64,000 nt of DNA, from assembly GCA_965218425.1 (NCBI GenBank), contig OZ244621.1, forward strand, positions 2,976,001 to 3,040,000, read 5' to 3'. Each line of letters begins with the position of its first letter. Position 1 is the first letter of the stretch. The translations under genes were made by a program, and so were the position numbers. The DNA is from an uncultured Candidatus Binatia bacterium. Lineage in GTDB: Bacteria; Desulfobacterota; Binatia; UBA9968; CAXXLF01. The notes beneath the pieces were generated by a model that had not been told where the DNA came from, searched no databases, and saw only the letters and a list, made by a program, of their open reading frames with translations. Shown piece by piece: positions 35,231 to 63,993 of the stretch.

Positions 35231-35764
35231 ATGGAGAGGGAAAGGGTCAGAGAGAAAGAACCCACGCAGAAGGGAGAGGGGGAGCATTACGAAGACATGT
35301 TGAAGGCTAACGCGGCGGCTAGAGAGCGAGCGAAAACCGGCAAGATCGTTATAAGGGCCAAAGATCTTCCGTGGCGGCAGTCGAGAATGGGGTATACCAA
35401 GGGATTCCTTGCCTGGAACCGTCCAAAGGACGAGGCTGCGGAAGACTGGACCGTATTCATCAAGGACCTCAAGATCCATTCAGGTAAACATCGGCATCAA
35501 GGGGGCATCCAGTTGTTCATTCTGGAAGGGGAAGGTTGCACTGTGGTGGATGGTGAACCAGTGGATTGGGAAAAATGGGACCTTATAGTCTTGCCGGTGA
35601 AGCCCAACGGCTGTGAGCACCAGCATTTCAGCAAGGTCAAAGGCATGCCATCCAAGTGGATGGCCTTCCGGTATCATCCTTTCTCCAAGGTTCTCGGAAA
35701 CATGTTTGAACACGTGGAGGATTCATCCGACTGGAAGGGTGAGAACCGGGTGGCGGGAGGCTAA
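35231..35764 (+). CDS. Cupin protein, MERERVREKEP family, paralogue 1 (gentisate-dioxygenase-like 3-His site)
   Basis: HSGKHRHQGG..LFILEGEG, WEKWDLIVLP, EHQHF; AGGAGG RBS. Confidence 0.85.
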   Translation: MERERVREKEPTQKGEGEHYEDMLKANAAARERAKTGKIVIRAKDLPWRQSRMGYTKGFLAWNRPKDEAAEDWTVFIKDLKIHSGKHRHQGGIQLFILEGEGCTVVDGEPVDWEKWDLIVLPVKPNGCEHQHFSKVKGMPSKWMAFRYHPFSKVLGNMFEHVEDSSDWKGENRVAGG

Positions 35765-42103: not shown

Positions 42104-43372
42104 TTGGCCACAAGCATTTCACAAACCGCAGTGCCAAGGGCGGAGCCCGCGCCGCGCTTTGCGGCCCTGCGTAACCCAACATTCCGTCTTTACTGGTTGG
42201 CCACGGTCAGTTCCGCTCTAGGTGATATCTCTGAGGCGGTGATCCGAAACTGGCTGGTTTGGGAGTTGACCAAGTCGCCTTTTTGGCTGGGCATCGCAAA
42301 CTTCTGTCACTGGCTACCCTTCAGTCTCCTGTGCCTTCATGCCGGGGTGTGGGCCGACCGCGTTAACAATAGAAAACTGGTCCGACTGTCGGAGTTCTTT
42401 TACCTCGCTTCGGCCGTCGTCATGGGAGTGCTTGTCCTGGCTGGAGTCATTCAGCTTTGGATGGTTTTGGTGCTGTTGATCTTACATGGCACCGGCGGGG
42501 GAATGAGCCAGCCCAGCAGAATGGTGATAGTGCATAATATGGTGGGAAAAGAGGCGCTTCTCAATGCCGTCAGTTTGAGTTCCTCAGCGCGTCATTCCTT
42601 GCAGGTCATCGGGCCCCCATTGGCAGGTCTGGCCCTTGTATCCATTGGAGTGGGGTGGGCCTACCTCATCATTGGAATGCTCTTTTTGCCTCTCATCCTG
42701 ACTCTGGGCGCCATGCGAATCGCTGAAACCCCTCATACAACAGAGGGGGAGCCCGTATCCGCATGGCTGAGCCTTAAGGAAGGGCTTCACTATGCAAGGT
42801 CAAATCCGATACCGTCGAGCCTATTGGCTCTGGCGGCCGCCCCCACCATACTCATCGGTAGCAGCTTTCAATCCATGCTTCCTTATTTTACGGAAAAGGT
42901 GTTTGGCCTGGGAGCACAGGGGTACAGCTTCTTACTGGCGGCCACCGGGGTTGGGGCCATTTTGGGGGCTCTAGGATTGTCCTGCATGCGCAGTGTCACC
43001 CACAAAGGGGCCGTGGTGCTCGGGTTTACCCTTGCCTATGCATTATTCATTATCGCCTTCGCTTGTTTCTCCTGGTATGTACCCGTGGTTGCGGCGTCGC
43101 TCTTTCTGGTGGCTTATGGTTCATCCTTTGTCATTCATCAAGCCTCAATCAATACGCTCCTGCTAATGGTGGCGCCACAGGCCGTGCGCGGACGGGTCAT
43201 GGGACTTTACAGCATGTCGGTATTTGGTCTACAGATCTTTAACGGGCCTGCTGTGGGTACCCTGGCGGTCGTCATCGGCATGTCCTCCGCCTTGTCCATT
43301 GTTGGGGCGTTAATTGTCATGATTACTCTAACCATTACTCTGAAGGTTCCGGCCTTGAGACGATTGCAATAA
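42104..43372 (+). CDS. MFS transporter (DHA3/EntS-like)
   Basis: FAALRNPTFRLYW, AGVWADRVNNRKL, RGRVMGLY. Confidence 0.88.
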   Translation: MATSISQTAVPRAEPAPRFAALRNPTFRLYWLATVSSALGDISEAVIRNWLVWELTKSPFWLGIANFCHWLPFSLLCLHAGVWADRVNNRKLVRLSEFFYLASAVVMGVLVLAGVIQLWMVLVLLILHGTGGGMSQPSRMVIVHNMVGKEALLNAVSLSSSARHSLQVIGPPLAGLALVSIGVGWAYLIIGMLFLPLILTLGAMRIAETPHTTEGEPVSAWLSLKEGLHYARSNPIPSSLLALAAAPTILIGSSFQSMLPYFTEKVFGLGAQGYSFLLAATGVGAILGALGLSCMRSVTHKGAVVLGFTLAYALFIIAFACFSWYVPVVAASLFLVAYGSSFVIHQASINTLLLMVAPQAVRGRVMGLYSMSVFGLQIFNGPAVGTLAVVIGMSSALSIVGALIVMITLTITLKVPALRRLQ

Positions 43373-43434
43373 GCCCTGGCAGGGAAGATGCCGCCTATTC
43401 ATCTAAAATCTATTTATGGAAAGGAGTTGGAACC

Positions 43435-44178
43435 ATGCGCTTAAAAGATAAAGTCGCCATTATTACGGGAGGAGGTGGTAAGATTGGCAAAGCCTATGCT
43501 CTGGGAATGGCCAGGGAGGGGGCAAAGCTGTGTCTCCCTGACATGGTTGATGCCACTCCGGTGGTGAAGGCCATTACAGACGTTGGTGGGGAGGCTATGA
43601 CCGTCCAGTGCGATGTCTCCGATGAGAAGAGCGTTCAGTCCATGGTGGAGGCTACCGTAAAGCGATTTGGCAGGGTGGATATTCTCGTGAACAATGCAGC
43701 CTATTTCATGAACATCAAGAAGAGTCGCTTCTGGGAAATGGAGGTGGAAGAGTTCGACAAGGCCATGGCGGTGAACGTACGAGGGGTCTGGCTTTGCGCC
43801 AAGGCCGTTTTCCCGCATATGAAAAAACAATCCAAAGGAAAGATCATTAATATTTCCTCCGGTGTGGTCCTCAACGGTACTCCTGATTACGTGCACTACG
43901 TCTCCTCTAAGGGCGCGGTCATGGCCATGACCCGTGCCATGGCTCGAGAGTTGGGAGACTACGGGATTTGCGTCAACACCATTGCCCCGGGATTTGTGGT
44001 GACGGAGGGTCGAAATGTGACTCCCGAGCAAGTAAAGAGGGCCAACGAGCGGCGTAGCTTCAAGCGGTCACAGGTGGAGGGGGATTTGGTGGGGACCATG
44101 CTGTTTCTTGCCTCTTCGGAAAGCGATTTCATGACGGGGCAGCTCCTGTCAGTGGACGGGGGCACCAATTTTCTATAG
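43435..44178 (+). CDS. Short-chain dehydrogenase/reductase
   Basis: TGGGGKIG, NNAA, YVSSK, VNTIAPG, MTGQLLSVDGG. Confidence 0.92.
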   Translation: MRLKDKVAIITGGGGKIGKAYALGMAREGAKLCLPDMVDATPVVKAITDVGGEAMTVQCDVSDEKSVQSMVEATVKRFGRVDILVNNAAYFMNIKKSRFWEMEVEEFDKAMAVNVRGVWLCAKAVFPHMKKQSKGKIINISSGVVLNGTPDYVHYVSSKGAVMAMTRAMARELGDYGICVNTIAPGFVVTEGRNVTPEQVKRANERRSFKRSQVEGDLVGTMLFLASSESDFMTGQLLSVDGGTNFL

Positions 44179-44215
44179 AGTCTAACCCAATTCAAAACGA
44201 AAAGGAGATTACCCT

Positions 44216-45241
44216 ATGGCAAAGGGATACGTTGACGCCGATGGTCATGTCATGGAAAACGAACAGGAGTTGAACGAATTCATTGAAGCCCCATTCAACA
44301 ATCGTTATGTCTCCGCGCGTCTGATGCTTCCGAGCCTCGACGAGTTTCATACCCCCAACGCTCGCCCGCGCCAGCCCGGAACCTTCGATCCGACTGTTGG
44401 GCCTGAAAGATGGCTTGAGTTCCTGGATAGGACGGACACCGATCATTCGGTGCTGTATCCCACCCTAGGGTTGGCCTATGGTCATGTGGTTTATCCTGAT
44501 TGGGCAACGGCCTTTGCCAAGGCTTACAACAATTGGCTGAGTGAAAAGTATTTGAGATTTAGCCCCCGCTTCAAGGGTATCGCACTCATCCCGATGCAGG
44601 ACGTTCCCAGCGCCGTGGCCGAGCTGAAGAGGGCAATGAAAGAACCTGGAATGGTCGGAGCCATGATCCCCTCCAACGGTCTCAAGAGGCATGTCAGCGC
44701 CCGGGAGTTCTGGCCCATTTACGAAGAGGCGGAAAGGCTGGATTGTGTGATGGCCGTGCATGGTGGGAGTTACAGCGACCTGGGGTTCAATACCTTTACG
44801 GTTTTCCCGCCCACCAGGGCGTTGGGGATGCCTGTCCCCTTGGCCATTGCAATGACGGGCATGATCGCGGACGGAGTGTTCGATCGATTCCCCAAGCTCC
44901 GGGTGGGGTTTTTAGAGGGAGGAACCAGCTGGATTCCAATGGTAATCGACCGGTTGGAGCGGGAGGTGGAGTATGGGGGGCTGCGCCTGAAGAGTTCCCC
45001 GGAGGATTATTTTCGCAACGGTAGAGTGTTTGTGGGGTGCGAAGGCAATGAGAAGGCCTTGGCCTATTCCATTGACCGCATCGGGCATGAGCCGTTTATG
45101 TTTGCTTCCGACTACCCCCACGAAATTGCCGCGGACAACGCCATGGGTGAGATTGATGAAATACTGGAGCGCAAGGACCTGAAAGAAGAACATAAGGCGG
45201 CGATCCTGGGGGAAAACGCCAAGAAGTTTTACAAGATTTGA
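44216..45241 (+). CDS. Amidohydrolase_2 family metalloprotein (decarboxylase/hydratase type)
   Basis: DADGH, AYNNWL, AVHGG, FLEGGTSW, FASDYPH. Confidence 0.88.
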   Translation: MAKGYVDADGHVMENEQELNEFIEAPFNNRYVSARLMLPSLDEFHTPNARPRQPGTFDPTVGPERWLEFLDRTDTDHSVLYPTLGLAYGHVVYPDWATAFAKAYNNWLSEKYLRFSPRFKGIALIPMQDVPSAVAELKRAMKEPGMVGAMIPSNGLKRHVSAREFWPIYEEAERLDCVMAVHGGSYSDLGFNTFTVFPPTRALGMPVPLAIAMTGMIADGVFDRFPKLRVGFLEGGTSWIPMVIDRLEREVEYGGLRLKSSPEDYFRNGRVFVGCEGNEKALAYSIDRIGHEPFMFASDYPHEIAADNAMGEIDEILERKDLKEEHKAAILGENAKKFYKI

Positions 45242-45269
45242 AGGATCGACTTCAAGGCGATCATAGGGA

Positions 45270-46457
45270 GTGGTAATCGTGGCCACACATTCCTTCGATT
45301 TTGCCCGCACGGGACCCGACACCTTGGCCGGACAGTATCTGCGAAAGTTCTGGCATCCGGTCTACCGATCTCAAGATTTATCGCCCGGCAGGATGGTTCC
45401 CATACAAATCATGAGTGAAAGGTTCACGCTCTACAGGGGAGAGACGGGGACTCCCCACGTGATTGCATTTCGATGCGCCCATCGTGGAACTCAGCTATCC
45501 ACCGGTTGGGTCGAAGGGGACTCTGTTCGATGCCGTTATCATGGGTGGAAATACGATGGCTCCGGACAGTGTGTGGAACAGCCGGGTGAGGAGGAGTCTT
45601 GCGCCCCCAAGGTCCAGATTCGCAGCTACCCCACGAAGGAGTACCTAGGTCATATCTTTGCTTATCTCGGTGAAGGTGAAACCCCGCCTCTGAGGCGGTT
45701 CCCAGATTTTGAAAGGCCAGGTATTGTGGAAGCGGCGACCCCGGAGATCTGGCCCTGCAACTATTTCAGCCGGATTGAAAACGATCCAAACCACGTGCCG
45801 TTTGTCCATCGGGAGTCCCTGTTGCGAGCAGGTCGCACTGAACGACTCTTTCCACGCAAGGTTTCAGCCGAAGAGACGGAGTACGGTGTTAGAATGGGCA
45901 TGAGCGTCCCCGGAGAACCGCAAGCCTTTCTTCATTTCCACATGCCGAATATCATACAGTCGAGATCACGAGTCCGGGTAGAAGGCTCGCAGGAGGACGT
46001 GAATACCCTATGGGCGGACCGTTATCTCATGCATGTCCCCATTGACGATGAAAGTAATGTTACCTTTATCGCCGATTGGATCCCCGTTATCGGCACGGCG
46101 GCACAGAGCTATCAAAATCGGCGCCTTCAGGCGCGGAAAACCATGAGTGTCTCTCCAAATCAAATTGGGGAAGCCGTTTTAGCCGGGAAAATGCGTATCG
46201 AGGACATGGATAGAGAGACTCCTACTTATTACTCATTTTGGGTGGAGGATTACGTGTCCCTGGTGGGGCAGGGCCCCATTGCCGACCGCGCCCAGGAGCA
46301 ACTCATCCAAGCGGATATAGGAGTTGTGTTCATACGCAAGATTTGGGAGCGTGAGCTTCGCGCGCTGGCAGAAGGACTCCCCCTCAAAGAGTGGACCACG
46401 CCGCCAGGGCTGGCAGATCAGAGCGTGGTTGCGGCTCCCCAGCGGATTTCCACGTGA
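45270..46457 (+). CDS. Rieske non-heme iron oxygenase alpha subunit 3
   Basis: CAHRG...CRYHGW, ENDPNHVPFVH, EDYVSLVGQ. Confidence 0.92.
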   Translation: MVIVATHSFDFARTGPDTLAGQYLRKFWHPVYRSQDLSPGRMVPIQIMSERFTLYRGETGTPHVIAFRCAHRGTQLSTGWVEGDSVRCRYHGWKYDGSGQCVEQPGEEESCAPKVQIRSYPTKEYLGHIFAYLGEGETPPLRRFPDFERPGIVEAATPEIWPCNYFSRIENDPNHVPFVHRESLLRAGRTERLFPRKVSAEETEYGVRMGMSVPGEPQAFLHFHMPNIIQSRSRVRVEGSQEDVNTLWADRYLMHVPIDDESNVTFIADWIPVIGTAAQSYQNRRLQARKTMSVSPNQIGEAVLAGKMRIEDMDRETPTYYSFWVEDYVSLVGQGPIADRAQEQLIQADIGVVFIRKIWERELRALAEGLPLKEWTTPPGLADQSVVAAPQRIST

Positions 46458-46586
46458 CGCTATCTATTAAGAGATGTATTGCTCGATTTGCTCGTGTATT
46501 AGTTCAAGTGTCTGGTTGGGTAATGACAGGGGCGACGTTATTTTTATCGGCGTAAAATCCCCCACGGCTTTTCAAGGAGTGTAGTT

Positions 46587-48008
46587 ATGGGTATCTACGA
46601 TCTTCATTCCTTCTTGGATGAATACGAGCGAGATTTCCCGGATGAGGTGGTGCATATCGAAGAACCCCTGAACGCCGCCTGGGAGATCACCGCGTTGGCC
46701 ACAAAGATGGAAAAAGCCAAACGGTTTCCTGTGATCATCTGCCATAACGTTATGGTGGAAGGCCGACGGATGGAAATGCCGCTGGTCACTTTTCTCATGG
46801 CCAGCCGAATTCGGTTGGCCCGTGCCTTGGGAACGGACATACAACAGGCGGGGGTCGCCTGCTACCAACGAGTGCAGGAGAGACGGAAGCCGCAAGTGGT
46901 TCCTCGTGGTGATGCACCGGTGAAAGAGGTGGTGGAAAAGGGCTCAAATGTGGATGTTCAGGGCTTTCCCGCCCCCCTGCACCACCGCATGGATCCGGGT
47001 CGGTACATTACGGAGGGACTGTTTCTCACACAAAACCGCAATTCTCGGTTGGACAACTCAGCCATGCATCGGGGATGGTTGTATGGGAGTGATGAAATTC
47101 AAGTATTCCTGGGGCGAAACTCCCATAATGCGGACAACCTCAGGCAGTACGAGCAGGCGGGTGAGGATATGCCCGCTGCCTACTGGGTGGGACACCATCC
47201 CCTGGTCCTGCTGGGAGCGGCAACCCATGTGGGGCCGGATGAGAGCCATTTCGAGACCGCGGGTGGTACCGTTGGTTCACCCCTTAGGCTCGTGCCGTCC
47301 GAAACCCTGGGTGAGGACTTTCTGGTGCCAGCCGATGCGGAGATCGTAATTGAGGGGTATGTCCCCAAGGGCAGTCGCAGGCCGGAGGGCCCCTTTGGTG
47401 AATACACCCGGTACGTTGGCCCCCAGCGTTGGAATCCGACCTTCAAGGTAACGGCAGTGACCCGTCGTCGCAATGCCTTTTGGGATGACGTCATGGTGGG
47501 CCATACCCATTGGATCACTAGCCTCAGCCGCGAAGGCGTCATCCTCCGAGCCATACGAAGCATCGTTCCTGGAGCGCGTGCCGTTCACCTGCCCATGTCA
47601 GGTGGTGGAGGTGTGCACGTTTACGTGCAAATTCGTAAGACTGTGGAGGGACAAGGTAAGGCTGCAGCCGTGGCGGCACTGTCATCAGGATTCGGGCATA
47701 AGCATGTGTTCGTGTTTGACGAGGATGTTGACATCTTCGATGAGAAAGAGGTGCTGCTGGCGGTTGCCATGCGGTTTCAGGCGGATCGCGGATTGATTGT
47801 GTTGCCCGGATTGACCGGCGGGGTGCTTGACCCCAGCTCTCCGGACGGAACCACCGCCACCAAGATGGGTTTTGACTGTACCAAGCCTGTGGGCACGGCC
47901 TTCGCAGAGCGTCTTTCGGTACCCCCAGAAGTATTGCAAAAGATTGACCCCTTAAAGCTGCTAAGCCGCGAGAAGTGGGAGCGTATCCCAGTGGAGCCGT
48001 GGGGCTGA
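46587..48008 (+). CDS. UbiD-family prFMN-dependent (de)carboxylase
   Basis: DPGRYIT, MHRG, VPADAEIVIEG, EGPFGEYT, DEDVDIFD, LDPS, KMGFDCT. Confidence 0.9.
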   Translation: MGIYDLHSFLDEYERDFPDEVVHIEEPLNAAWEITALATKMEKAKRFPVIICHNVMVEGRRMEMPLVTFLMASRIRLARALGTDIQQAGVACYQRVQERRKPQVVPRGDAPVKEVVEKGSNVDVQGFPAPLHHRMDPGRYITEGLFLTQNRNSRLDNSAMHRGWLYGSDEIQVFLGRNSHNADNLRQYEQAGEDMPAAYWVGHHPLVLLGAATHVGPDESHFETAGGTVGSPLRLVPSETLGEDFLVPADAEIVIEGYVPKGSRRPEGPFGEYTRYVGPQRWNPTFKVTAVTRRRNAFWDDVMVGHTHWITSLSREGVILRAIRSIVPGARAVHLPMSGGGGVHVYVQIRKTVEGQGKAAAVAALSSGFGHKHVFVFDEDVDIFDEKEVLLAVAMRFQADRGLIVLPGLTGGVLDPSSPDGTTATKMGFDCTKPVGTAFAERLSVPPEVLQKIDPLKLLSREKWERIPVEPWG

Positions 48009-48152: not shown

Positions 48153-48686
48153 ATGGAGAGAGAAAGAGTCAGAGAGAAAGAGCCGGTACAAAAAGACCGG
48201 GGAGAGCACTACGAAAACATTCTGAGACTCAACGCAGAGGCCAGGGATCGTGCCCGAAATGGAAAAATCGTTATCAAGGCCAATGAACGGCCCTGGTACC
48301 AGTGCAGACAGGGTTTGATCAAACAATACCTTTCCTGGCACGACATGGAAGACTCCGCCGCAACGGACTGGTCCTGTTTTGTTCATGATATCAAGCGTCA
48401 TTCAGGCAAACACCGACACCAGGGTGGATTCAATCTATTTGTACTCGAAGGTGAAGGGATGACTGAAGTGGATGACCAGACAGTGGAGTGGGAGAAATGG
48501 GACCTGATACTGTTGCCGGTTAAACCGGGTGGGTGCGTTCACAAACATTACAACAAAGTCGAAGGAGAACCGGCCAAGTGGATGGCTTTCAAATACAATA
48601 CCTTTTCACAGGTTTTGGGCAGTATGTTTGATCAGGTGGAAAACTCGCCGGATTATAAAGGGGAGAAAAAAGCATCATCGGCATGA
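48153..48686 (+). CDS. Cupin protein, MERERVREKEP family, paralogue 2
   Basis: HSGKHRHQGG..LFVLEGEG, WEKWDLILLP, VHKHY. Confidence 0.85.
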   Translation: MERERVREKEPVQKDRGEHYENILRLNAEARDRARNGKIVIKANERPWYQCRQGLIKQYLSWHDMEDSAATDWSCFVHDIKRHSGKHRHQGGFNLFVLEGEGMTEVDDQTVEWEKWDLILLPVKPGGCVHKHYNKVEGEPAKWMAFKYNTFSQVLGSMFDQVENSPDYKGEKKASSA

Positions 48687-48733
48687 TTTAGTTGGAATTT
48701 TAGCACAGTAGAAGTCAGCAGGGAGGTTCCTAG

Positions 48734-49219
48734 ATGGCAAAAGACTTACTCGATAATCTGTTTTCGAAACGGGATGCCTGGCGCAAGAAGATGGAAGGTG
48801 CCAGGGCCTTGATCAAGTGGAAGGATCTCAAGTGGGAGATTAACAAACAAGGCAGGTTCAAGTGGTATCTTCACCCGGATATTGAAGATATTGCCAGCCC
48901 GGCCCATTTGTTTTTTATGCAGGAGATCCTCCCCGGGAGCCGCAGCGGGAAGCAGAAGGTCCAGGGGGGGATTGTACACCACATCCTGGAAGGAAACGGT
49001 TACACCATCGTAGATGGGGTGAAACATGACTGGGAAGCCGGAGATGTGGTGGCGTTGCCATTTCTACCCGACGGCTTGGAGTATCAACACTTCAATTCCG
49101 ACCCGGAAAAGTCAGTAATGCTAGTGGCAGCCATGCCCAACTTCTTCGACGTTTTCGGGGTGGACATGGGATCGGGTTTTGAACAACTCGAGGCCTGTCC
49201 CGAGTATCAGGCCGGCTAG
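48734..49219 (+). CDS. Divergent cupin lacking the canonical His ligands
   Basis: RSGKQKVQGG..HHILEGNGYT, DWEAGDVVALP, EYQHF; GGGAGG RBS. Confidence 0.8.
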   Translation: MAKDLLDNLFSKRDAWRKKMEGARALIKWKDLKWEINKQGRFKWYLHPDIEDIASPAHLFFMQEILPGSRSGKQKVQGGIVHHILEGNGYTIVDGVKHDWEAGDVVALPFLPDGLEYQHFNSDPEKSVMLVAAMPNFFDVFGVDMGSGFEQLEACPEYQAG

Positions 49220-49478
49220 GGTCTATTACTCTCAGCTGTTTTCGACGGGAAAGCGCGGGGTGGTCCCTTTTCTCAGTTGGTCTTGTGGTTCGCGGAGCGG
49301 AAGACCATCTGACCTTTTTAAGGCAACACCTTCGCCGTCTCCATACTTAACCGCCATTGGAATCAGTGAACCTGACCCACGGGTTTGTATGAAATCCGAG
49401 GGTCTCGGCCGGATTGTATGGGTGTCGAGTTGTGTGTTTGGAATGCCGGCAATAAATTCATGCGGCATAAGCTAGTTT

Positions 49479-51029
49479 ATGCATTTGGAAACATCCATTG
49501 CTGAGCCTCAGTTCCCGGCGTTCAATCTTCACGAGGGGCACTGGGACGAAGATGAGTTCTCAGAGGCCATGGACATCGCCCTGGGTGATGAATTTCTCTA
49601 CGGCAAGACCGACCTGGTCAAGGTTACCAGTATGGGCGTGCACATCGGCTCGGCAACGACCCATCTTGGAATCAGCAAGCTTTCTTTGCGCAAAGGCGGC
49701 AAGAATCTATCCAGTAAATCTGTGGTCAAAAGCAGAGAGATCTTTTACGAGTCTGCGGTGATTTCGACCCCGTTTCAAGATGACGGGCAGCTCCATGGGA
49801 AACAACTGAAAGCGTTTATTGAAAGTTCTTATAACGAGGCCCGCCTTGTGGGTCATCTGATCGAGACCGGAGTGGTGGTGATGAGTGGTAAGGCGACTGG
49901 GCCGAAAAATCTATCCGTGGTTGAAGAAGTGTTGGGACAGGAAAAGAGTCGGCTTCTTTTTGTTTCAGAGGGTTTGAAATTGCAGGCCATGCTGGCCGCA
50001 TTGGGGGCGGGAGCCGTGGAAAAATCCGGCAATGAGAAAAAAAGAGTCCTCAACGTGGACCTTGGAGCCGACGGAATCAGATTCGCATGGGTGGCCAATG
50101 GGTCCTTTGAGAATTTTTACTTTACCCGGGCCGGGGCGAAGGTGCTGGACATGGATGAGCAGGGGGAATTGACTCATTTGAGTGAGACGGGGCAGAAGAT
50201 AGCGGCTCAACTAGGTCTCAAGCTGCAGGCGGGCAAGCCGGTATCACGTTCCGAGAAACAGGCGCTGGGCAGGTTTCTGGCCGAGACCTTGCTTGACTAC
50301 CTGGAGGGGGAAAGTGTCTCAGAAAAAGGTAAGATCATATTCGACTCGACTCCTCCGCCCTTGGACAAGGTGGATTTCGTCCAGTTCTCCGGTGGGGTGG
50401 CTGAGTTTGTCTATGGTTACGAGAGTCAACCAGGAGTAGACGTTGGCTTTGATTGGGGAACCGCAATTCGTAAACGAGCACCCAGACTGGGTGTCAAAAT
50501 GGGAGTGCTGACACCCGGAAACCGGGTGCGTGCAACTCCGGTGGGGGTAGCCCTTTACTCGACTCCTGTGCCCCCTGAATCTTTCTTCTGCTCCCATGGC
50601 CATGTCCATGGTTTGAAAAATCTATTGGTGGTTTCTCCAAAGTTTGAGCCGGGATTGAAGAATGCAGAGGGCACCCAAAAAGAGATTGAAAAGGCACTCT
50701 CCCGTTTTGAGCTTCTTAACGGCTCGAGACAACCCTTTGCCTTGTCCATGGATTTGGTTGAAGGGCAGGACTCCGATGAGGCCGTCACCATGGGACTTTC
50801 CTCTGCCCTGGGCCATCTGTGGAATCATGACTTCCCCCTGGTCTTGGTGGGTGAATCGGATGCGCCATGTCGCCTCGCCAGAGAACTGGCCGCTCGAAAT
50901 CCGGATAACAATGGTAGTTTCATCGGGTTGAGTGGGCTCCATGCACACGATATGGACTTCATTGAAGTCCGAAACGCGGATCCAAATGGTGAGGTGCCGG
51001 TGCTGGTTCGTTCCATGGTGTTTCGGTGA
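49479..51029 (+). CDS. EutA-like ASKHA (actin/Hsp70-fold) protein
   Basis: SMGVHIGSATTHLGISKL, TPF, IETGVVVMSG, AMLAALGAGA, LNVDLG, FSGGVAEFVYG, VRATPVG, C-terminal VPVLVRSMVF match the EutA layout. Confidence 0.75.
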   Translation: MHLETSIAEPQFPAFNLHEGHWDEDEFSEAMDIALGDEFLYGKTDLVKVTSMGVHIGSATTHLGISKLSLRKGGKNLSSKSVVKSREIFYESAVISTPFQDDGQLHGKQLKAFIESSYNEARLVGHLIETGVVVMSGKATGPKNLSVVEEVLGQEKSRLLFVSEGLKLQAMLAALGAGAVEKSGNEKKRVLNVDLGADGIRFAWVANGSFENFYFTRAGAKVLDMDEQGELTHLSETGQKIAAQLGLKLQAGKPVSRSEKQALGRFLAETLLDYLEGESVSEKGKIIFDSTPPPLDKVDFVQFSGGVAEFVYGYESQPGVDVGFDWGTAIRKRAPRLGVKMGVLTPGNRVRATPVGVALYSTPVPPESFFCSHGHVHGLKNLLVVSPKFEPGLKNAEGTQKEIEKALSRFELLNGSRQPFALSMDLVEGQDSDEAVTMGLSSALGHLWNHDFPLVLVGESDAPCRLARELAARNPDNNGSFIGLSGLHAHDMDFIEVRNADPNGEVPVLVRSMVFR

Positions 51030-51121
51030 TGGCCGCAACTCGTAACGAGAGAGTGCTTTTATTGAATTTGATCAATAGAATGCTAAATGGGATGAATTTG
51101 AGAAAATTTTTTGCGTTAAGA

Positions 51122-51227
51122 CGCCAAGGCGCAAAGAAAAAATTTTTGTTGTTTCCAATCTTGGCGTGCTTTGTGGTTCGACCAGGCTCGCCACCCTGAG
51201 TCCATCGAAGGGCGTCTTTGCCCCTCG
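51122..51227. repeat. REP-like palindrome with a nested 39-bp insert (sister of 41821-41888)
   Basis: CTTGGCGTGCTTTG[TGGTTCGAC..GCTCGCCACCCTGAG..TCGAAGGG]CGTCTTTG; left arm CGCCAAGGCGCAAAG. Confidence 0.7.
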
Positions 51228-51353
51228 ATTCCCCTTGGGGTCCTGAGGCTCTCGAAGGACGCGAGCCGTCTTGTTCCGGATTCGGAACGCCGGTTTAGAG
51301 CTCACAGGTGAATTTACATATAGCTAGGACAGCAAAATGAGGGAGGAAGGTTC

Positions 51354-53513
51354 ATGGCGGTTTTCTTGCAGGTAGAAGAGTGTCCTGCCGCCTATTCGGC
51401 TCAGGGACGTGTGCTTCTGGATCCGGAGATCATGAAAAAAAACGGTATCAAAGCGGACGATGCCGTGGAGGTGGAGACCAACAATGGCCGGAGTGTTCTG
51501 GCGCGGGTGGCCAAGCCACAAGAAGAGGATGAAGGGAAGAAATACATCCGCATGGATCAGTACCTCAGGCATTCCACCAAGAGCCTCTTGGGTGACTGGG
51601 TTTCGGTGGTTCCCATTCAGATGAAGACGGTAAGCAGGGTTACCCTCGCTCCCTTCGTTAATATCTCTGACATCAAAGGGGTCGATGCCTATCTGATCAA
51701 GAATTTTGCCTCTAAGGGATTGCTGGTCAGTGACGGGCAGGTCCTCTACGCGACGTTGCCGGGGCAGAGTCAGGGCACCGCGTTCAAGGTCACTGAGATT
51801 GAGCCGGAAGCCGGCCTGATGACGGCAGAAACAAAACTCGACCTGGACTATGTGTTCTCGTCATGGGGCCAGGTCTCGGATCAGGTCACCTTTGAGGACG
51901 TAGGAGGTCTCCAAAAGGAAATCGGTCTTATACGGGAACTGGTGGAACTCCCGTTGCTCTTTCCGGATGTCTTTCGTCACCTTGGCATCAATCCGCCCCG
52001 TGGAATTATCCTGTACGGTCCGCCGGGGAGCGGCAAGAGCCACACGGCCAGGGCCATTGCCAATGAGATCAATGCAAAGTTTCTTTACATCAATGGTCCC
52101 GATATCGTGAGCTCGGTGTATGGTGAGACGGAATCCAACTTGCGTAAAATTTTTGAGGAGGCGTCCCATCATCTCCCTTCGATCATTTTTATTGACGAGG
52201 TGGACGCCATCGCACCTATGCGGGGGGAAAGCGGCTCGCATTCCGACACCCGGATGGTGGGCCAGCTTTTGGAGTTGATGGACGGCCTTAACCGAGTAGA
52301 GGGGATAATAGTCCTGGGGACCACCAATAGGGTGGAGTCTCTGGACAAGGCCATACGACGTCCCGGCCGATTCGATAGAGAGATCTTCATTGGACCGCCC
52401 GATGCTCAAGGGAGATTGGAGATACTACAGATCCATAGCCGGGGCATGCCGCTTGCCGAAGGAATATTTGAGACCTTGAGGGAGGTGGCACGTGTTACCC
52501 ATGGCTTTGTGGGGGCGGACCTGATGGAGCTGTGTCGTGAGAGCGGGCTGAACTGCCTGAGAAGGATCATGGGGGATCGGCGCCTTTCGCCGGCACGATT
52601 CAAGGTAGGTCTCGACGATCTGGTGGTTACGGGTGAGGATTTTACCAAGGCCGCAGGCCTGATTCGACCCTCTGCCATGCGGGAGACCATCACCAGCATT
52701 CCTGATGTTGGATGGGACGACATCGGCGGATTGGAAGTGGTCAAGAATAAACTTCGCGATCTGGTGGAAAAGCCGCTGGTGGACCCGGAGGCCTTTCGCG
52801 CAACGAATATCCGTCCCCCCACTGGAATTCTCCTCTATGGACCTCCGGGTACAGGGAAGACCCTTCTAGCCAAGGCCATCGCACGGGAGTCGGGGGCGAA
52901 CTTCCTCTATATCCGGGGGCCTGAGGTGTTCAGTAAGTGGCTGGGAGAATCGGAAGAGAGTGTTCGTCACGCCTTTCAGGTGGCCCGGCAGGTGGCCCCA
53001 GCGGTCATTCTATTCGATCAAATCGATGCCATTGCTCCAAGCCGGCGCGCCGACAGTGATACGAAGGCTTCCGAACGGGTCGTCAACCAAATCCTGACCG
53101 AAATGGATTCCATTGATAACTATAGTCGCATTGTCGTGGTGGCGGCATCCAACCGGCTGGATTTGTTGGATCCGGCAATTCTTCGACCTGGACGATTTGG
53201 GGTCCACATTCACGTGCCCCTACCTGAGTTGACCGATCGTAAAGCTATCCTGGAGTCCAAATTGAAGAAGGCTTCGTTCAAGAACAACGATAATCGAAAG
53301 AAGGTTGTCGTTGAAGTGGCAGAAAAAACTGAAGGGTTCTCAGGCGCTGAGCTTGAAGCGCTTTGCAATGAAGCACAGCTCATCTCCCTCAAGGAAAACA
53401 ACTATGCAGGAACAAATAAACTTGAGGTGATTCATTTCCTTCGGGCGCTGGACGATATGGAAAAGGCCCGGGAGATCTACCACGCCGAGAAGAAGGAATT
53501 GTCCCTGAGTTGA
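51354..53513 (+). CDS. Cdc48/VCP-like double-ring AAA+ ATPase
   Basis: N-domain plus D1 (VTFEDVGG, GPPGSGKS, FIDEVD, RRPGRFDRE) and D2 (WDDIGG, GPPGTGKT, LFDQID, LRPGRF). Confidence 0.92.
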   Translation: MAVFLQVEECPAAYSAQGRVLLDPEIMKKNGIKADDAVEVETNNGRSVLARVAKPQEEDEGKKYIRMDQYLRHSTKSLLGDWVSVVPIQMKTVSRVTLAPFVNISDIKGVDAYLIKNFASKGLLVSDGQVLYATLPGQSQGTAFKVTEIEPEAGLMTAETKLDLDYVFSSWGQVSDQVTFEDVGGLQKEIGLIRELVELPLLFPDVFRHLGINPPRGIILYGPPGSGKSHTARAIANEINAKFLYINGPDIVSSVYGETESNLRKIFEEASHHLPSIIFIDEVDAIAPMRGESGSHSDTRMVGQLLELMDGLNRVEGIIVLGTTNRVESLDKAIRRPGRFDREIFIGPPDAQGRLEILQIHSRGMPLAEGIFETLREVARVTHGFVGADLMELCRESGLNCLRRIMGDRRLSPARFKVGLDDLVVTGEDFTKAAGLIRPSAMRETITSIPDVGWDDIGGLEVVKNKLRDLVEKPLVDPEAFRATNIRPPTGILLYGPPGTGKTLLAKAIARESGANFLYIRGPEVFSKWLGESEESVRHAFQVARQVAPAVILFDQIDAIAPSRRADSDTKASERVVNQILTEMDSIDNYSRIVVVAASNRLDLLDPAILRPGRFGVHIHVPLPELTDRKAILESKLKKASFKNNDNRKKVVVEVAEKTEGFSGAELEALCNEAQLISLKENNYAGTNKLEVIHFLRALDDMEKAREIYHAEKKELSLS

Positions 53514-53585
53514 TCAAGCAAAGCGTTGATTTCGGGTGAGTCGGACAGGCCGTATTGATTCATTCCCAGGAAGAAGAGGGGGGAC

Positions 53586-54332
53586 ATGGCGAAACAGTCA
53601 ATAGTGAAGGATTTAAAAGATCGATTAATGGATGGAATCAAGGTGTTAACAGGGGAACAGGTTTTGACCGGCTCGGGGCATCTAAGCGTCAGAATCCCGG
53701 GAACGGATACTTTCTTGATCAACCCCAGGTACGCGGGAATTCTTGCCGACGTCAAGGATATCTGCACGGTCAACATGTCCGGCCAACGAGTTTCGGGTTC
53801 GGAGCCCATCCCCCTGGAAATACCCATTCACGCCGTGGTGTATCGGGCCAGGCATGACGTCATGAGTGTCCTTCACTGTCACGCCCGCTATGCCGTCATG
53901 GTGGGACTGCTGGATTCGGGGCTGGTCCCGTTTCACCGGGAGGCCAGGGCCTTCGAGGCCGGCGTGCCCGTATTTCCCGACAGCAACGGAATCAACAATG
54001 CGGCTCTTGCTCAACGGATGGTGGAGAGCCTGGGGTGGCACTCCGCAGTGTTTCTCAGGGGACATGGGATCGTTGTGACAGGAAAGAGCATAGAAGGGAC
54101 CTGTGTCTCCGCCATTCAGTTGGAGCGGGCCTGTGCGGATCAACTCCTCATGTCGAGTTCCACAACCATCAAGCCCTTAACCGAGGAATACACCACCAAG
54201 GTGCCGGGCAAGGATGAGAATCCCTACCGGGCCTGGCCATTCCTCCTGTATAAACACAAGGTCAGGTCCCGGCAGGCGATCAAATCCACCACGAAGAAAA
54301 TGATCAAAACCTTGTGGCCGGATGAGAGGTAA
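53586..54332 (+). CDS. Class II aldolase/adducin-family metalloenzyme
   Basis: GHLSVR, PLEIPIH, VLHCH, LRGHG. Confidence 0.88.
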   Translation: MAKQSIVKDLKDRLMDGIKVLTGEQVLTGSGHLSVRIPGTDTFLINPRYAGILADVKDICTVNMSGQRVSGSEPIPLEIPIHAVVYRARHDVMSVLHCHARYAVMVGLLDSGLVPFHREARAFEAGVPVFPDSNGINNAALAQRMVESLGWHSAVFLRGHGIVVTGKSIEGTCVSAIQLERACADQLLMSSSTTIKPLTEEYTTKVPGKDENPYRAWPFLLYKHKVRSRQAIKSTTKKMIKTLWPDER

Positions 54333-54846: not shown

Positions 54847-55954
54847 TGAACTGGATCAAACACATGTGAGACAGATTTAAGCTACAAAGGAGAGGTTTTG
54901 TAAGTATAAAGAAAGGACCCCTCCATGAGCTACTTTGGACTGAACTGGCAATTTAACTGGGCTTGCCGTCATCTCCACACTAACCTCTCGCCCAAAGAGC
55001 GCGATCGACTTAGAGCCCTCCTTCTGTGGCAGGAGACCAAAGACATAAAGCTTACCTACCGCACTTTTGACCTGAGCCGACCCACTGTTTACCTCCGGCT
55101 CCAACGCTTTGATCCCAACGACCTCGGCTCCCTTCGAGAGCGTTCTCGCAAACCGCACCGGTTCACACAGCCCCAATGGCCCCTGGCCCTCAAGCAGGCA
55201 ATACTACGCTTAACAGAGCAATATCCCCGCTGGGGTAAAAACAAACTCGTAGTGCTACTTCAAAACGAAGGCTTTGAGGTCTGTGCTCCTACCGTGGGCC
55301 GTATTCTCAGCTCTGTCAGGCAGCGCGGACAACTCATAGAGCCAAAACCCCAAGCTATCTCCACAAAAAGACGGCGTAAGCTAAGACCCTACGCTATCGG
55401 TAAACCCAAAGACTATCAGCCCCTTTACCCTGGCGACCTGGTTCAAATCGACACCCTCGACATCGGTCCCGTGCCAGGCGTGATCCTCAAACAGTTCACT
55501 GCCCGCGATGTGGTCTCGCGCTGGGACGTACTCAAAGTTCATCGTCAAGCTAGCGCCCCCCTAGCCGCCTCGTTCATCGATACCATCAAGGCTCGTATGC
55601 CCTTTGCCGTACGTGCCTTTCAGGTCGATGGAGGCTCAGAGTTGTTCTCTGACTTTGAGACCCACTGCCAACAACATGGCATCCGGTTGTTCGTCGTGGG
55701 GCCTAAAAGTCCTAAGCTCAATGGTGCTGTGCAACGGGCTAACCGTACTCACACTGAGGAGTTCTATGAGGTCCAACAGTGTGCTTGGACCGTTGAGGCT
55801 CTTAACCAATCAACTGCTCGAATGGGAACGGACCTACAATACGGTACGGCCCCACCAGGCACTTAATTACTTAACTCCCTTGCAATATCTCCAAGACCGA
55901 GGCATCGTATCCTCCAAAAATCCCTCCCTGTCTCATATGTACTGATCCACTACA
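54847..55954 (+). mobile_element. IS481-family-like insertion sequence with a frameshifted transposase (54925-55945)
   Basis: HTH plus integrase core (PGDLVQIDT, QVDGGSE, PKLNGAVQR, YNTVRPHQAL); +1 shift near 55810; imperfect terminal IRs TGAACTGGATCAAACACATGTGAGACAG / TGTAGTGGATCAGTACATATGAGACAG. Confidence 0.85.
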
Positions 55955-62882: not shown

Positions 62883-63413
62883 TCAAGCGGGGGCCTTTTC
62901 TTCACCCTTCCAATCGGGGGAGTTCTCCACCTGCTCGAACATGTTTCCCAGCACCTTAGCAAATGGGTTGTAGCGGAAGGCCATCCACCTGGCGGGCGCC
63001 CCTTTGACTTTATTGTAGTGCTTGTGGGTACAGCCTTCGGGCTTCACCGGCAGGATAATCAGGTCCCACTTGTCCCATTCCACTCTCTGATTGTCCAATT
63101 CCGTATGTCCTTCACCTTCGAGGACAAATATCTGAATTCCTCCCTGGTGCTTGTGCTTTCCTGAATGGACCTTGATATCATGAATAAAACAGGTCCATTC
63201 GGTAGCCGCCGTGTCATCATGACCGTGCCAGGAAAGAAAGGTCTTCGTTAAGCCCTGGCGACCCTGGTGCCAGGGACGCTCCTTGGCCTTGATTACGATC
63301 TTGCCCGACTTGGCACGATCCCTGGCCTCGGCGTTTAACCTCAGCGTGTTCTCGTAGTGCTCTCCCTGGTCTTTCTGTACGGGCTCTTTCTCTCTTACCC
63401 TTTCCCTCTCCAT
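62883..63413 (-). CDS. Cupin protein, MERERVREKEP family, paralogue 3
   Basis: Start placed at ATG 63413 after AAAGGAG; HSGKHKHQGG, THKHY. Confidence 0.85.
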   Translation of the reverse strand: MERERVREKEPVQKDQGEHYENTLRLNAEARDRAKSGKIVIKAKERPWHQGRQGLTKTFLSWHGHDDTAATEWTCFIHDIKVHSGKHKHQGGIQIFVLEGEGHTELDNQRVEWDKWDLIILPVKPEGCTHKHYNKVKGAPARWMAFRYNPFAKVLGNMFEQVENSPDWKGEEKAPA

Positions 63414-63459
63414 GTTCAAAACTCCTTTTTTCGGTACTAAATGACCTAGTCCGTGCGGA

Positions 63460-63993
63460 TCAAGCCGAGGTACTTTTTTCTTCACCCTTCCAATCAGGAG
63501 AGTTCTCCACTTGATCAAACATGTTGCCAAGCACACTAGTAAACGGATGATACCGAAAGGCCATCCACTTGGCAGGTGAACCTTTTACCTTATTATAGTG
63601 TTTGTGGGTGCAGCCATTGGGTTTCACGGGGAGGATGATCAGGTCCCATTTCTCCCACTCAACTTTTTCATTATCCACTTCTGTATATCCGTCCCCTTCG
63701 AGAACAAACAACTGGATTCCACCCTGGTGCCGATGTTTTCCCGAATGGGCTTTCACGTCATGGATAAAGCATGTCCAGTCTTGTGCAGCCGTGTCATCCA
63801 TGTCATGCCAGGCGAGGTATGATTTGATAAACCCCTGTTTGCCTTGACTCCAGGGGCGCTCTTTGCCCTTGATGACGATCTTGCCTTTCTTGGCACGTTC
63901 CCTGGCCTCGGCGTTGAGTCTCAATGTGTTTTCGTAATGCTCTCCCTGGTCTTTTTGTACCGGTTCTTTCTCTCTGACTCGTTCTCTCTCCAT
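63460..63993 (-). CDS. Cupin protein, MERERVREKEP family, paralogue 4 (tandem with paralogue 3)
   Basis: HSGKHRHQGG, WEKWDLIILP, THKHY. Confidence 0.85.
   Translation of the reverse strand: MERERVREKEPVQKDQGEHYENTLRLNAEARERAKKGKIVIKGKERPWSQGKQGFIKSYLAWHDMDDTAAQDWTCFIHDVKAHSGKHRHQGGIQLFVLEGDGYTEVDNEKVEWEKWDLIILPVKPNGCTHKHYNKVKGSPAKWMAFRYHPFTSVLGNMFDQVENSPDWKGEEKSTSA

Follow-up and report, generated by a model that had tools for sequence, protein, structure and literature searches.

The MoxR/vWA pairs CbbQO and NorQD, as well as rubisco activase, mature or reactivate metalloenzymes, and they have in common a motor and a non-catalytic adaptor placed beside the client. In NSF, a two-ring ATPase, the D1 ring is active and the D2 ring is structural. 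We know of no ATP-dependent helper for the gentisate and salicylate 1,2-dioxygenases (3bu7, 2d40 and 2phd), bicupins with one 3-His barrel and a degenerate second barrel, and to our knowledge the cupin dioxygenases are generally regarded as independent of assembly or repair factors. Among AAA+ proteins with the N-D1-D2 layout (archaeal VAT/Cdc48, eukaryotic p97 and actinobacterial Cpa), the Cpa study, in its accessible part, describes a protein without an HbYX tail, with a strictly conserved D2 and a mildly degenerate D1, in which a D2 E-to-Q change was engineered to block hydrolysis (PMC6017811). The EutA reactivase (PF06277) of E. coli and Salmonella serves the adenosylcobalamin-dependent ethanolamine ammonia-lyase EutBC, whose spent cofactor it swaps, as stated in the accessible part of its report (PMC9426561).

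The window, that is, the whole 64,000-nucleotide stretch of DNA that was analysed, contains five genes related to these proteins (Table 1); the EutA-like and Cdc48-like proteins of the locus are hereafter designated EutA* and Cdc48*. As an earlier note on this DNA had described, the five ORFs are co-oriented. All lie on the + strand and match the expected Pfam domains, cupin B below the cut-off. They are separated, in order, by 47, 259, 324 and 72 bp. Upstream of them lies a catabolic block, mostly retained in G002 and L131, whose genes were labelled from Pfam, except for the MFS transporter, whose label is a reading of the sequence. The "island" proposed for this region was not borne out by composition, since the GC content is 0.50–0.60 throughout the stretch, which also led us to reject a horizontally acquired island. 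Compared with the MoxR/vWA pairs and rubisco activase, this system would have a Cdc48 in place of their motor, an ASKHA pseudo-enzyme as its proposed adaptor and a cupin as its client. Our results suggest that the union of cupin, EutA* and Cdc48* is an undescribed machine for the loading or repair of cupin metal sites. The literature, searched by title or abstract start and for the most part outside subscription journals, yielded no description of this system; no paper on EutA together with Binatota was found, and the papers on EutA and cupins concerned, by title, canonical eut operons or ectoine.

Table 1. Features of the locus, with positions in the window
Feature	Position	Strand	Length	Basis or remark
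Upstream catabolic genes: MFS transporter, SDR, amidohydrolase, Rieske oxygenase, UbiD decarboxylase	42104..48008	+		
Cupin A	48153-48686	+	177 aa	Cupin_2 27.6 bits (cut-off 27.2)
Cupin B	48734-49219	+	161 aa	Cupin_2 21.6, below cut-off
EutA*	49479-51029	+	516 aa	EutA PF06277 191.8 bits, cut-off 27
Short dispersed repeat	51160..51287	no strand		blastn; outside system
Cdc48*	51354-53513	+	719 aa	CDC48_N + two AAA modules (Pfam)
Class II aldolase-fold enzyme	53586-54332	+	248 aa	Aldolase_II 111 (Pfam)

The five-gene order was found again in three other loci, and the order cupin, EutA*, Cdc48* recurred in all seven informative loci (G000, G001, G002, L131 and L133–L135), down to 53% identity, so that the linkage suspected in the earlier note holds in genomes other than this one. 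The five genes do not keep together as a single unit: in L134 and L135, cupin B does not lie in the interval from cupin A to EutA*, and the aldolase is present in four loci, absent from L135 and was not seen where Cdc48* occurs without EutA*. Cupin–EutA*–Cdc48* forms the core, and the aldolase is peripheral to it. The latter protein, a putative pathway enzyme, carries E78, an HxH motif at 97–99 and GHG, and its nearest named models, PRK06208 and the PhtC decarboxylase, both score below cut-off.

The proposal that cupins are the partners held up separately for the EutA and the Cdc48* families when compared with controls, the cupins concerned being gentisate-dioxygenase-like. In this genome, which abounds in UbiD, Rieske, amidohydrolase and cupin genes, with about 101 cupin-like ORFs, nine EutA-like genes and one Cdc48*, a cupin lies directly upstream of seven of the nine EutA paralogues, as compared with 67 of 2825 genes overall and with 5/72 UbiD, 4/80 Rieske and 6/115 amidohydrolase genes, the denominators being the genome-wide family counts. 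A cupin of the matching subtype is directly upstream at 39 of 40 chosen EutA loci of relatives, a choice that excluded the EutA type E_962k, solitary in each of the 17 loci inspected in relatives. Adjacent cupins were also found at 12 of 13 EutA loci in the class of G452, and, in another phylum, that of G449, at 15 of the 28 eutB-free EutA loci; the flanks in that phylum are mostly 1.5 kb, and the other 13 EutA loci showed no adjacent cupin. For the Cdc48 family, in the same phylum and with the same short flanks, a cupin is adjacent at 8/11 loci of the DQ type (none at the other three) versus 0/9 of the canonical DE type. Of 82 canonical Cdc48 loci, none had an adjacent cupin. A search of the genome contigs with Cdc48, in which the matches listed were mostly canonical proteins, served as a control. 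All of these counts overstate the linkage, since kin are not independent. Two unrelated ATPase families track one cupin superfamily in at least three phyla. The cupin-like ORFs of this genome nevertheless far outnumber its EutA-like and Cdc48* genes, and neither helper is obligatory, because most genomes with cupin A/B-type genes (17 of the 41 surveyed, including drafts that may hide some helper genes) lack them: Cdc48* occurs in six of the 17 and EutA* in three.

EutA* has the ASKHA fold, with PPX/GppA, PilM and dehydratase activators as fold matches, and a PDB sequence search with it returned no match. It shares with the EutA reactivase a full-length family match, the fold and the adenosine-loop motif FSGG.AE. 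However, it scores far below the equivalog cut-offs (at best 143.6 bits against an NCBIfam cut-off of 598), it is linked to cupins and Cdc48*, and its catalytic Asp, Glu and Thr are replaced. The replacements D55H (21/21), E169Q (21/21) and T199G (22/22) run through the EutA* clade, and G197 is also replaced, by Ala; the intact eutBC-free EutA proteins have D in 97/98, E in 98/98 and T in 98/98 at the same positions, which we take to be the phosphate-1 Asp, the connect-1 Glu and the phosphate-2 DxGGGT. Meanwhile, the clade has gained five conserved histidines, H488 and H490 in 22/22 members and H373, H375 and H377 in 20–21 of 22, at positions where the intact eutBC-free set does not commonly have His. 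As a hint of metal handling, an N-terminal extension with at least three His is found in 55 of 98 intact eutBC-free EutA proteins, as compared with none of three eutB-linked ones. Actin hydrolyses ATP with a Gln at the connect-1 position, so E169Q by itself does not prove inactivity; given the replacement of three catalytic positions across the clade, EutA* is probably not an ATPase. We propose, from these motif changes, that it is a pseudo-ATPase adaptor or metal carrier.

Cdc48* shows about 40–46% identity to archaeal Cdc48 and scores 720.1 bits against TIGR01243 (CDC48), below the cut-off of 802.65. In its N-D1-D2 layout, D1 is intact (GPPGSGKS and IIFIDEVD), while D2 retains Walker A and the pore Trp but reads VILFDQID at Walker B (E556Q). 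The D2 Walker-B Glu is missing from all 37 members of the Cdc48* clade, 31 of which have Gln, and D1 retains DE in 37/37; outside the clade, D2 has DE in 91 of 94 sequences. Thus, the change engineered in Cpa occurs naturally in Cdc48*, and the pattern given for Cpa in the accessible part of its report (PMC6017811) is reversed, with D1 conserved and D2 degenerate. Like Cpa as described there, the clade is without an HbYX-like tail (0/37), a weak test given that only 11 of the 94 outside sequences fit the tail pattern. Unlike VAT, p97 and Cpa, Cdc48* is linked to cupins and has no 20S proteasome pair: the only proteasome-family gene in the genome has the size and sequence of HslV. With one active and one presumably structural ring, Cdc48* resembles NSF, and it is the proposed motor of the system. 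The locus therefore does not encode the two ATPases of the earlier note in their full form, as EutA* lacks the catalytic residues and Cdc48* the D2 Walker-B Glu, conserved losses that the note had overlooked. An assembly error behind these motif changes was ruled out, as they are common to all orthologues. In the public DNA contigs that fit the stretch, no change is listed at the altered EutA* and Cdc48* motifs; one of these contigs, which may be the source of this DNA, covers the stretch whole with 0 differences.

Of the cupin pair described earlier, the 3-His cupin A was confirmed, with H87-x-H89 and H132 as the metal-site histidines, whereas cupin B is not ligand-less: it reads KQKVQ where KHRHQ is expected but retains the last His, and thus one of three ligands. 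Cupin A has nine close paralogues in the genome (55–76% identity). Cupins A and B align to the N-terminal and C-terminal half, respectively, of fused proteins of 358 aa, found in this genome and in G005, and a fused A–B homologue matches the gentisate dioxygenase 3bu7 (E 3e-12). The two are likely to make up a bicupin of the gentisate-1,2-dioxygenase-like kind that has been split, in which cupin A would be the metal-bearing client and cupin B its structural partner. The apparent likeness to gentisate dioxygenases is distant. The top fold matches of the cupin A model include salicylate and gentisate 1,2-dioxygenases but are weak (E about 1e-3), the model being mediocre (pLDDT 65.5), and a PDB sequence search with the C_505k bicupin gave no match. 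As compared to those dioxygenases, cupins A and B are split over two genes and, at 17 and 16 bits, score far short of the 442 bits set as the TIGR02272 cut-off.

Taken together, we infer a function in cupin maturation or repair, and put at about 0.5 the probability that the core is an ATP-driven machine for loading or repairing the metal sites of cupins, Cdc48* being the motor and EutA* a metal-binding adaptor. This reading draws directly on the gene order, the linkage with controls, the motif losses and gains, purifying selection and the lack of eutBC matches; the inactivity read from motif loss, the physical contacts, the binding of metal, the client and the direction, loading or repair, are put forward conditionally. 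The clients would be gentisate-dioxygenase-like cupin metalloenzymes, with cupins A and B together forming a split bicupin. Cdc48* would act as a hexameric motor hydrolysing ATP in D1 alone, while D2, unable to hydrolyse but with nucleotide bound and the aromatic pore residue retained, would act as a clamp, so that the pull would act on one part of the client, with no threading into a protease. EutA* would stem from a large branch of the EutA family that is independent of eutBC and in which the intact proteins pair with bicupins; beside Cdc48* it may have given up its own ATP hydrolysis and been retained as a client-binding or metal-carrying adaptor by way of the newly gained His cluster. The cupin site would thereby be opened, and metal loaded or an oxidised or stuck metal exchanged. 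A more detailed version, in which EutA* is an ASKHA pseudo-ATPase that carries a metal, possibly nickel, on its His cluster and docks onto an NSF-like one-ring Cdc48 for cupin metal insertion or swap, is tentative; if true, the EutA and Cdc48 families would be alternative solutions to one unrecognised maturation step, merged here.

If the metal sites are indeed serviced in this way, this would explain the many genes that are wrongly annotated as reactivases of ethanolamine lyase, and a bacterial Cdc48 clade would have a specific, non-proteasomal job. The cupins, with about 100 copies here, could then be inactive when expressed alone, which may account for the lack of assigned activity in such proteins. 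The natural D2 E-to-Q ring also offers a ready test of how work is divided between the rings of Cdc48/p97.

The two helpers might instead share an operon without working together, Cdc48* serving cupin A/B alone and EutA* having an independent, non-catalytic role in metal buffering or in regulating the intact EutA paralogues by pairing. In keeping with this, cupins adjoin Cdc48* in all six loci that lack EutA* (G005 twice, G017, G039, G413 and L045), no EutA match was obtained in the genome G448, and eight intact-type EutA paralogues are present in trans in the genome studied here. However, Cdc48* follows directly behind EutA* in 7/7 loci, at only 40–108 bp in five other loci (250 bp in G001), and the simplest explanation for the loss of catalysis in EutA* is that the energy comes from a partner; we therefore consider separate action unlikely. 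Cdc48*–cupin loci without EutA* came from this order plus one acidobacterial record.

It is rather improbable that the cupins are subunits or ligand-sensing adaptors instead of clients, with the ATPase-fold proteins acting alongside them on other targets, either in an ATP-coupled catalytic step or in servicing the UbiD, Rieske or amidohydrolase enzymes encoded nearby. ASKHA subunits do take part in ATP-coupled catalysis in oxoprolinase-type enzymes, the likeness of the cupins to gentisate dioxygenases is distant, tandem arrays of four to six bicupins upstream of Cdc48* would fit a set of specificity adaptors, and EutA follows UbiD in L197 and L201. Yet cupin A retains its full 3-His site, the UbiD, Rieske and amidohydrolase neighbours vary between loci, and catalytic phosphorylation would be beyond a dead EutA*.

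Co-regulation alone, with Cdc48* as a general quality-control chaperone for oxidatively stressful catabolism and EutA* as a slowly decaying passenger, has a low probability. EutA* does form a long branch, and in two of three comparisons it evolves 2–3 times faster than its neighbours, with the highest dN/dS of the five genes. Even so, its dN/dS is still 0.08–0.15 (0.05–0.08 for Cdc48* and 0.02–0.06 for cupin B), its replacements are each fixed to a single residue (H, Q, G or R) without scatter, and the link is specific to cupins and does not extend to Rieske or UbiD genes, which are just as abundant.

No eutBC or shell gene had been noticed in the window, and this extends to the whole single-contig genome (97% complete), in which searches for EutB, EutC and BMC, including the shell family PF00936, gave no match; a check for eutBC elsewhere in the genome was thus negative. 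EutB was likewise found in none of 41 genomes, all of which carry EutA-like genes. Methylmalonyl-CoA mutase had no match in the genome; a diol dehydratase search carries no weight here, as it gave no match in any control genome. Reactivation by EutA* of a B12 enzyme encoded elsewhere, which the Pfam name EutA and three B12-binding domains in the genome, all far from any EutA-like gene, would favour, is highly improbable, given the lack of EutB, EutC and methylmalonyl-CoA mutase matches, the lost catalytic residues of EutA* and the separation of the eutB-free EutA clade from the eutB-linked proteins (support 0.98; tree rooted on E. coli).

With respect to nickel, Ni/Co transporter genes adjoin EutA-like genes in L141, L143, L144 (together with NikR) and L201, while no nickel link was seen among the 40 relatives' loci and NicO had no match in this genome. 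A small downstream ORF in L136, considered as a Ni transporter, was not supported by Pfam and was left out of the counts.

The 259-bp gap before EutA* could contain a promoter. It holds no ORF conserved among five orthologous spacers and, given that an Rfam scan of 40–56 kb of the stretch gave 0 matches, no known riboswitch; a scan for promoters and terminators found two and four sites, respectively, versus 4.3 and 7.8 expected. The 324-bp gap between EutA* and Cdc48* is enlarged by the short dispersed repeat, which has 11 other blastn matches in the genome and is the only piece of the stretch matched by many unrelated public contigs.

All five open reading frames claimed in the earlier note were found in place, with Pfam matches, in order, to Cupin_2, Cupin_2 (under the cut-off), EutA, CDC48_N plus two AAA modules, and Aldolase_II. 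The genome, G000, is a single contig of 4.46 Mb and 97% complete. EutB, EutC, BMC and methylmalonyl-CoA mutase had no match anywhere in it, so that the absence of eutBC and shell genes noted for the window holds genome-wide. The setting had been called an oxygenase-rich island; catabolic families are indeed abundant, but the richness extends over the whole genome (72 UbiD, 80 Rieske, 115 amidohydrolase, 101 cupin-like ORFs, 12 class II aldolases and 9 EutA-like genes), and GC does not set the block apart from its flanks. The paralogue expansions of the first four families are very large. Given this abundance, adjacency to cupins needed controls.

Table. Coordinates of the five genes and of features in G000 and other loci
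Feature	Location	Remark
Cupin A	window 48153-48686	+ strand
Cupin B	window 48734-49219	+ strand
EutA*	window 49479-51029	+ strand
Cdc48*	window 51354-53513	+ strand
Class II aldolase	window 53586-54332	+ strand
Short dispersed intergenic repeat	window 51160-51287	11 other matches in genome
Transposase-like ORF	window 54925-55866	straight after aldolase; right border of block; near-identical N-terminus at genome position 3907890
Cupin A paralogue	window 35231-35764	
Cupin A paralogue	window 62883-63536	
Cupin A paralogue	window 63460-63993	
E_962k	G000:C1:961788-963416	stand-alone EutA-like type
Split EutA paralogue	G000:C1:1738881-1740388	two frames
NikR homologue region	G000:C1:1795863-1805105	
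EutA-like gene, His-rich N-terminus	L138:7815-9437	
Phyllobacterium plasmid cluster	L144:5332-15032	

A cupin lies directly upstream of 7/9 EutA-like genes in G000, as compared to 5/72 UbiD, 4/80 Rieske and 6/115 amidohydrolase genes, and 67/2825 of all genes of at least 200 aa. EutA-like matches occurred in 41/41 genomes searched (2-10 per genome), and EutB in none of the 41. The earlier note had proposed surveying EutA homologues in eutBC-free genomes, and cupin linkage was found in three lineages. Among relatives, 39 of 40 loci, hand-chosen and omitting the E_962k type, have a cupin upstream, every EutA subtype with its own cupin subtype. In the phylum of G449, reached via a Ktedonobacteraceae record, 14 of the 201 genomes sampled had EutA matches (30 loci); two loci are linked to eutB, and a cupin adjoins 15 of the remaining 28. 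A Sphingomonas record led to the class of G452, in which 7/401 genomes had matches and a cupin was adjacent in 12/13 loci. The window's own phylum yielded matches in just 3/151 sampled genomes, G000 included. With E. coli EutA as root, the tree places the eutB-free proteins in a single clade (support 0.98), inside which EutA* occupies a long branch with no clear sister. The EutA-like genes here track cupins rather than EutBC.

The E_962k type (also L014-L030) has intact motifs, His/acid-rich tails and mostly one syntenic position. None of the 17 such loci inspected in relatives has a neighbouring cupin, and the type could be a housekeeping helper working in trans. In L138, L139 and L140, an EutA-like gene with a His-rich N-terminus and without a cupin lies beside a formate-dehydrogenase-like cluster (labels read from sequence), possibly another client class. 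The G000 paralogue split over two frames, intact in G001 and G002 (L217, L218), is a frameshift or assembly error.

For Cdc48*, 1.84 billion representatives were searched with a profile; 107 of the best 150 matches (600-860 aa, plus P0049) entered a tree, together with 8 canonical proteins and the 16 query rows. Among the best 150 matches and the queries, Cdc48* belongs to a clade (support 0.986) of 37 sequences, which include 21 representatives. The D2 Walker-B Glu is missing from all 37 (31 have Gln instead), as is an HbYX-like tail, and all retain DE in D1, the Walker-A Lys of each ring and the pore Trp of D2; outside the clade, 91/94 sequences have the D2 DE. The second ring of the clade is thus predicted to be dead. 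In mycobacterial-type Cpa, according to PMC6017811, E-to-Q at the D2 Walker B was made to block hydrolysis, and D2 is the strictly conserved ring, whereas the Cdc48* clade has a D2 lacking this Glu. The one proteasome-family gene in G000 is HslV-like in size and sequence.

In the phylum of G449, a cupin adjoins 8/11 loci with the D2 Gln versus 0/9 with the Glu, and cupins were beside 0/82 canonical Cdc48 loci, many of them archaeal or short. Among the 41 genomes, A/B-type cupins are present in 6/6 having Cdc48* and in 11 more without a Cdc48* match. In the 201-genome sample, 7/8 Cdc48* genomes, probably kin, carry EutA-like genes. Loci with Cdc48* and no EutA* have flanking cupins in 6/6 cases (G005 twice, G017, G039, G413, L045), some as arrays of 4-6 bicupins. 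In L125, L126, L127 and L283, 4-6 cupin genes in tandem sit immediately next to Cdc48*. Two unrelated ATPase families each track the same cupin superfamily, and meet in this block.

The proposed linkage of cupins, EutA-like protein and Cdc48 is kept in 7/7 informative loci (G000, G001, G002, L131, L133-L135); the fragment L132 was excluded, as was L044, a record titled Candidatus Binatia bacterium that has the same block (Cdc48 88% identity). As a unit of five, the block fared less uniformly. The complete order is also found in G001, G002 and L131, a metagenome locus, and L133 has its first four genes before the locus ends, but L134 and L135 (EutA* 53-54% identity) have no cupin B between cupin A and EutA*-Cdc48*, and the aldolase is absent from the following 2.1 kb in L135. 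Between eutA* and cdc48* lie 40-108 bp in five loci, 250 bp in G001 and 324 bp in the window, where the dispersed repeat inflates the gap. The system is rare: EutA* comprises 22 protein clusters from protein searches, with orthologues in 2/40 relatives, and Cdc48* occurs in 7/301 genomes of the class, G000 among them.

The model of EutA* is confident (pLDDT 83.5) and has the ASKHA fold. Of the two ATPase-fold proteins of the earlier note, EutA* has catalytic residues replaced and Cdc48* has lost the D2 Glu. Compared with 98 intact eutB-free proteins and 3 canonical ones, the 22 EutA* sequences (one without its N-terminal third) show the replacements D55H (21/21), E169Q (21/21), G197A (21/22), T199G (22/22) and K201R (22/22); the intact eutB-free set has D in 97, E, G and T in all 98, and K in 97. 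D55 is the phosphate-1 Asp and E169 the connect-1 Glu, and positions 197-201 lie in the phosphate-2 loop. EutA* is probably a pseudo-ATPase; as it retains D194 and the adenosine motif FSGG, it may still bind nucleotide. It has gained His residues (H488 and H490 in 22/22; H373, H375 and H377 in 20-21/22) at positions whose common residues in the intact set do not include His. Because the replacements are fixed to single residues and accompanied by new conserved His, the changes point to a new function rather than decay.

Cupins A and B are two halves of one bicupin, A matching the N-half, and B the C-half, of 358-aa fusion proteins in G000 and G005. Cupin A has H87, H89 and H132; cupin B, described earlier as ligand-less, keeps the last His alone. 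The fused form matches gentisate 1,2-dioxygenase 3bu7 (E 3e-12), and salicylate and gentisate dioxygenases are, weakly, among the top fold matches of a mediocre cupin A model, while both cupins score far under equivalog cut-offs. The G000 cupins form groups of 63 and 35; cupins A and B belong to the second, which Cdc48* follows, and the first precedes 5/6 of the intact EutA paralogues with an upstream cupin. Cupin A is duplicated far more often than cupin B in G000, which may mean that a single B subunit partners many A subunits. Three further cupin A paralogues (61-76% identity) lie in the window.

The simplest reading, to which we give a probability of roughly one half, is a helper machine for the cupin metal site. 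Cdc48* would deliver force from D1, its D2 serving as a nucleotide-bound clamp, as D2 does in NSF. EutA*, freed from hydrolysis, would recognise the client or carry metal. Canonical EutA swaps the spent cofactor of its client (PMC9426561), and metal exchange would extend this family behaviour to a new client. That the two proteins are independent helpers sharing one operon is rather unlikely: the cupins beside Cdc48* at loci without EutA* speak for it, and the presence of Cdc48* directly behind EutA* in every informative locus speaks against it. It is also unlikely that the cupins are subunits or adaptors rather than clients, as cupin A keeps a complete 3-His site. Co-regulation only is improbable; purifying selection acts on each of the five genes (dN/dS 0.08-0.15 for EutA*, 0.02-0.08 for the other four). 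A B12 reactivase, as the EutA family name suggests, is hardly credible in a genome with no EutB match. The system is provisionally counted among ATP-driven metalloenzyme helper systems, with EutA* placed outside the EutA reactivases and Cdc48* regarded as an atypical Cdc48. A literature search covering openly available papers found nothing on cupin-linked EutA, a D2-dead bacterial Cdc48 clade, or their union.

At least three His occur in the N-terminal extension of 55/98 intact eutB-free EutA proteins versus 0/3 eutB-linked ones. Ni/Co transporter genes adjoin an EutA-like gene in L141 and L143 (HupE/UreJ), L144 (NicO, with NikR) and L201 (NicO, weak match). None was seen at the 40 chosen relatives' loci and NicO has no match in G000, so the nickel link is a hint only. 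In G000, two sets of metal ABC transporter genes flank a NikR homologue, at a distance of 6-15 kb from the bicupin-EutA pair E_1788k. Phyllobacterium (L144) and Sinorhizobium (L146) plasmids carry a Rieske oxygenase, ferredoxin, class II aldolase, bicupin and intact EutA-like gene, and these culturable hosts are good genetic test systems.
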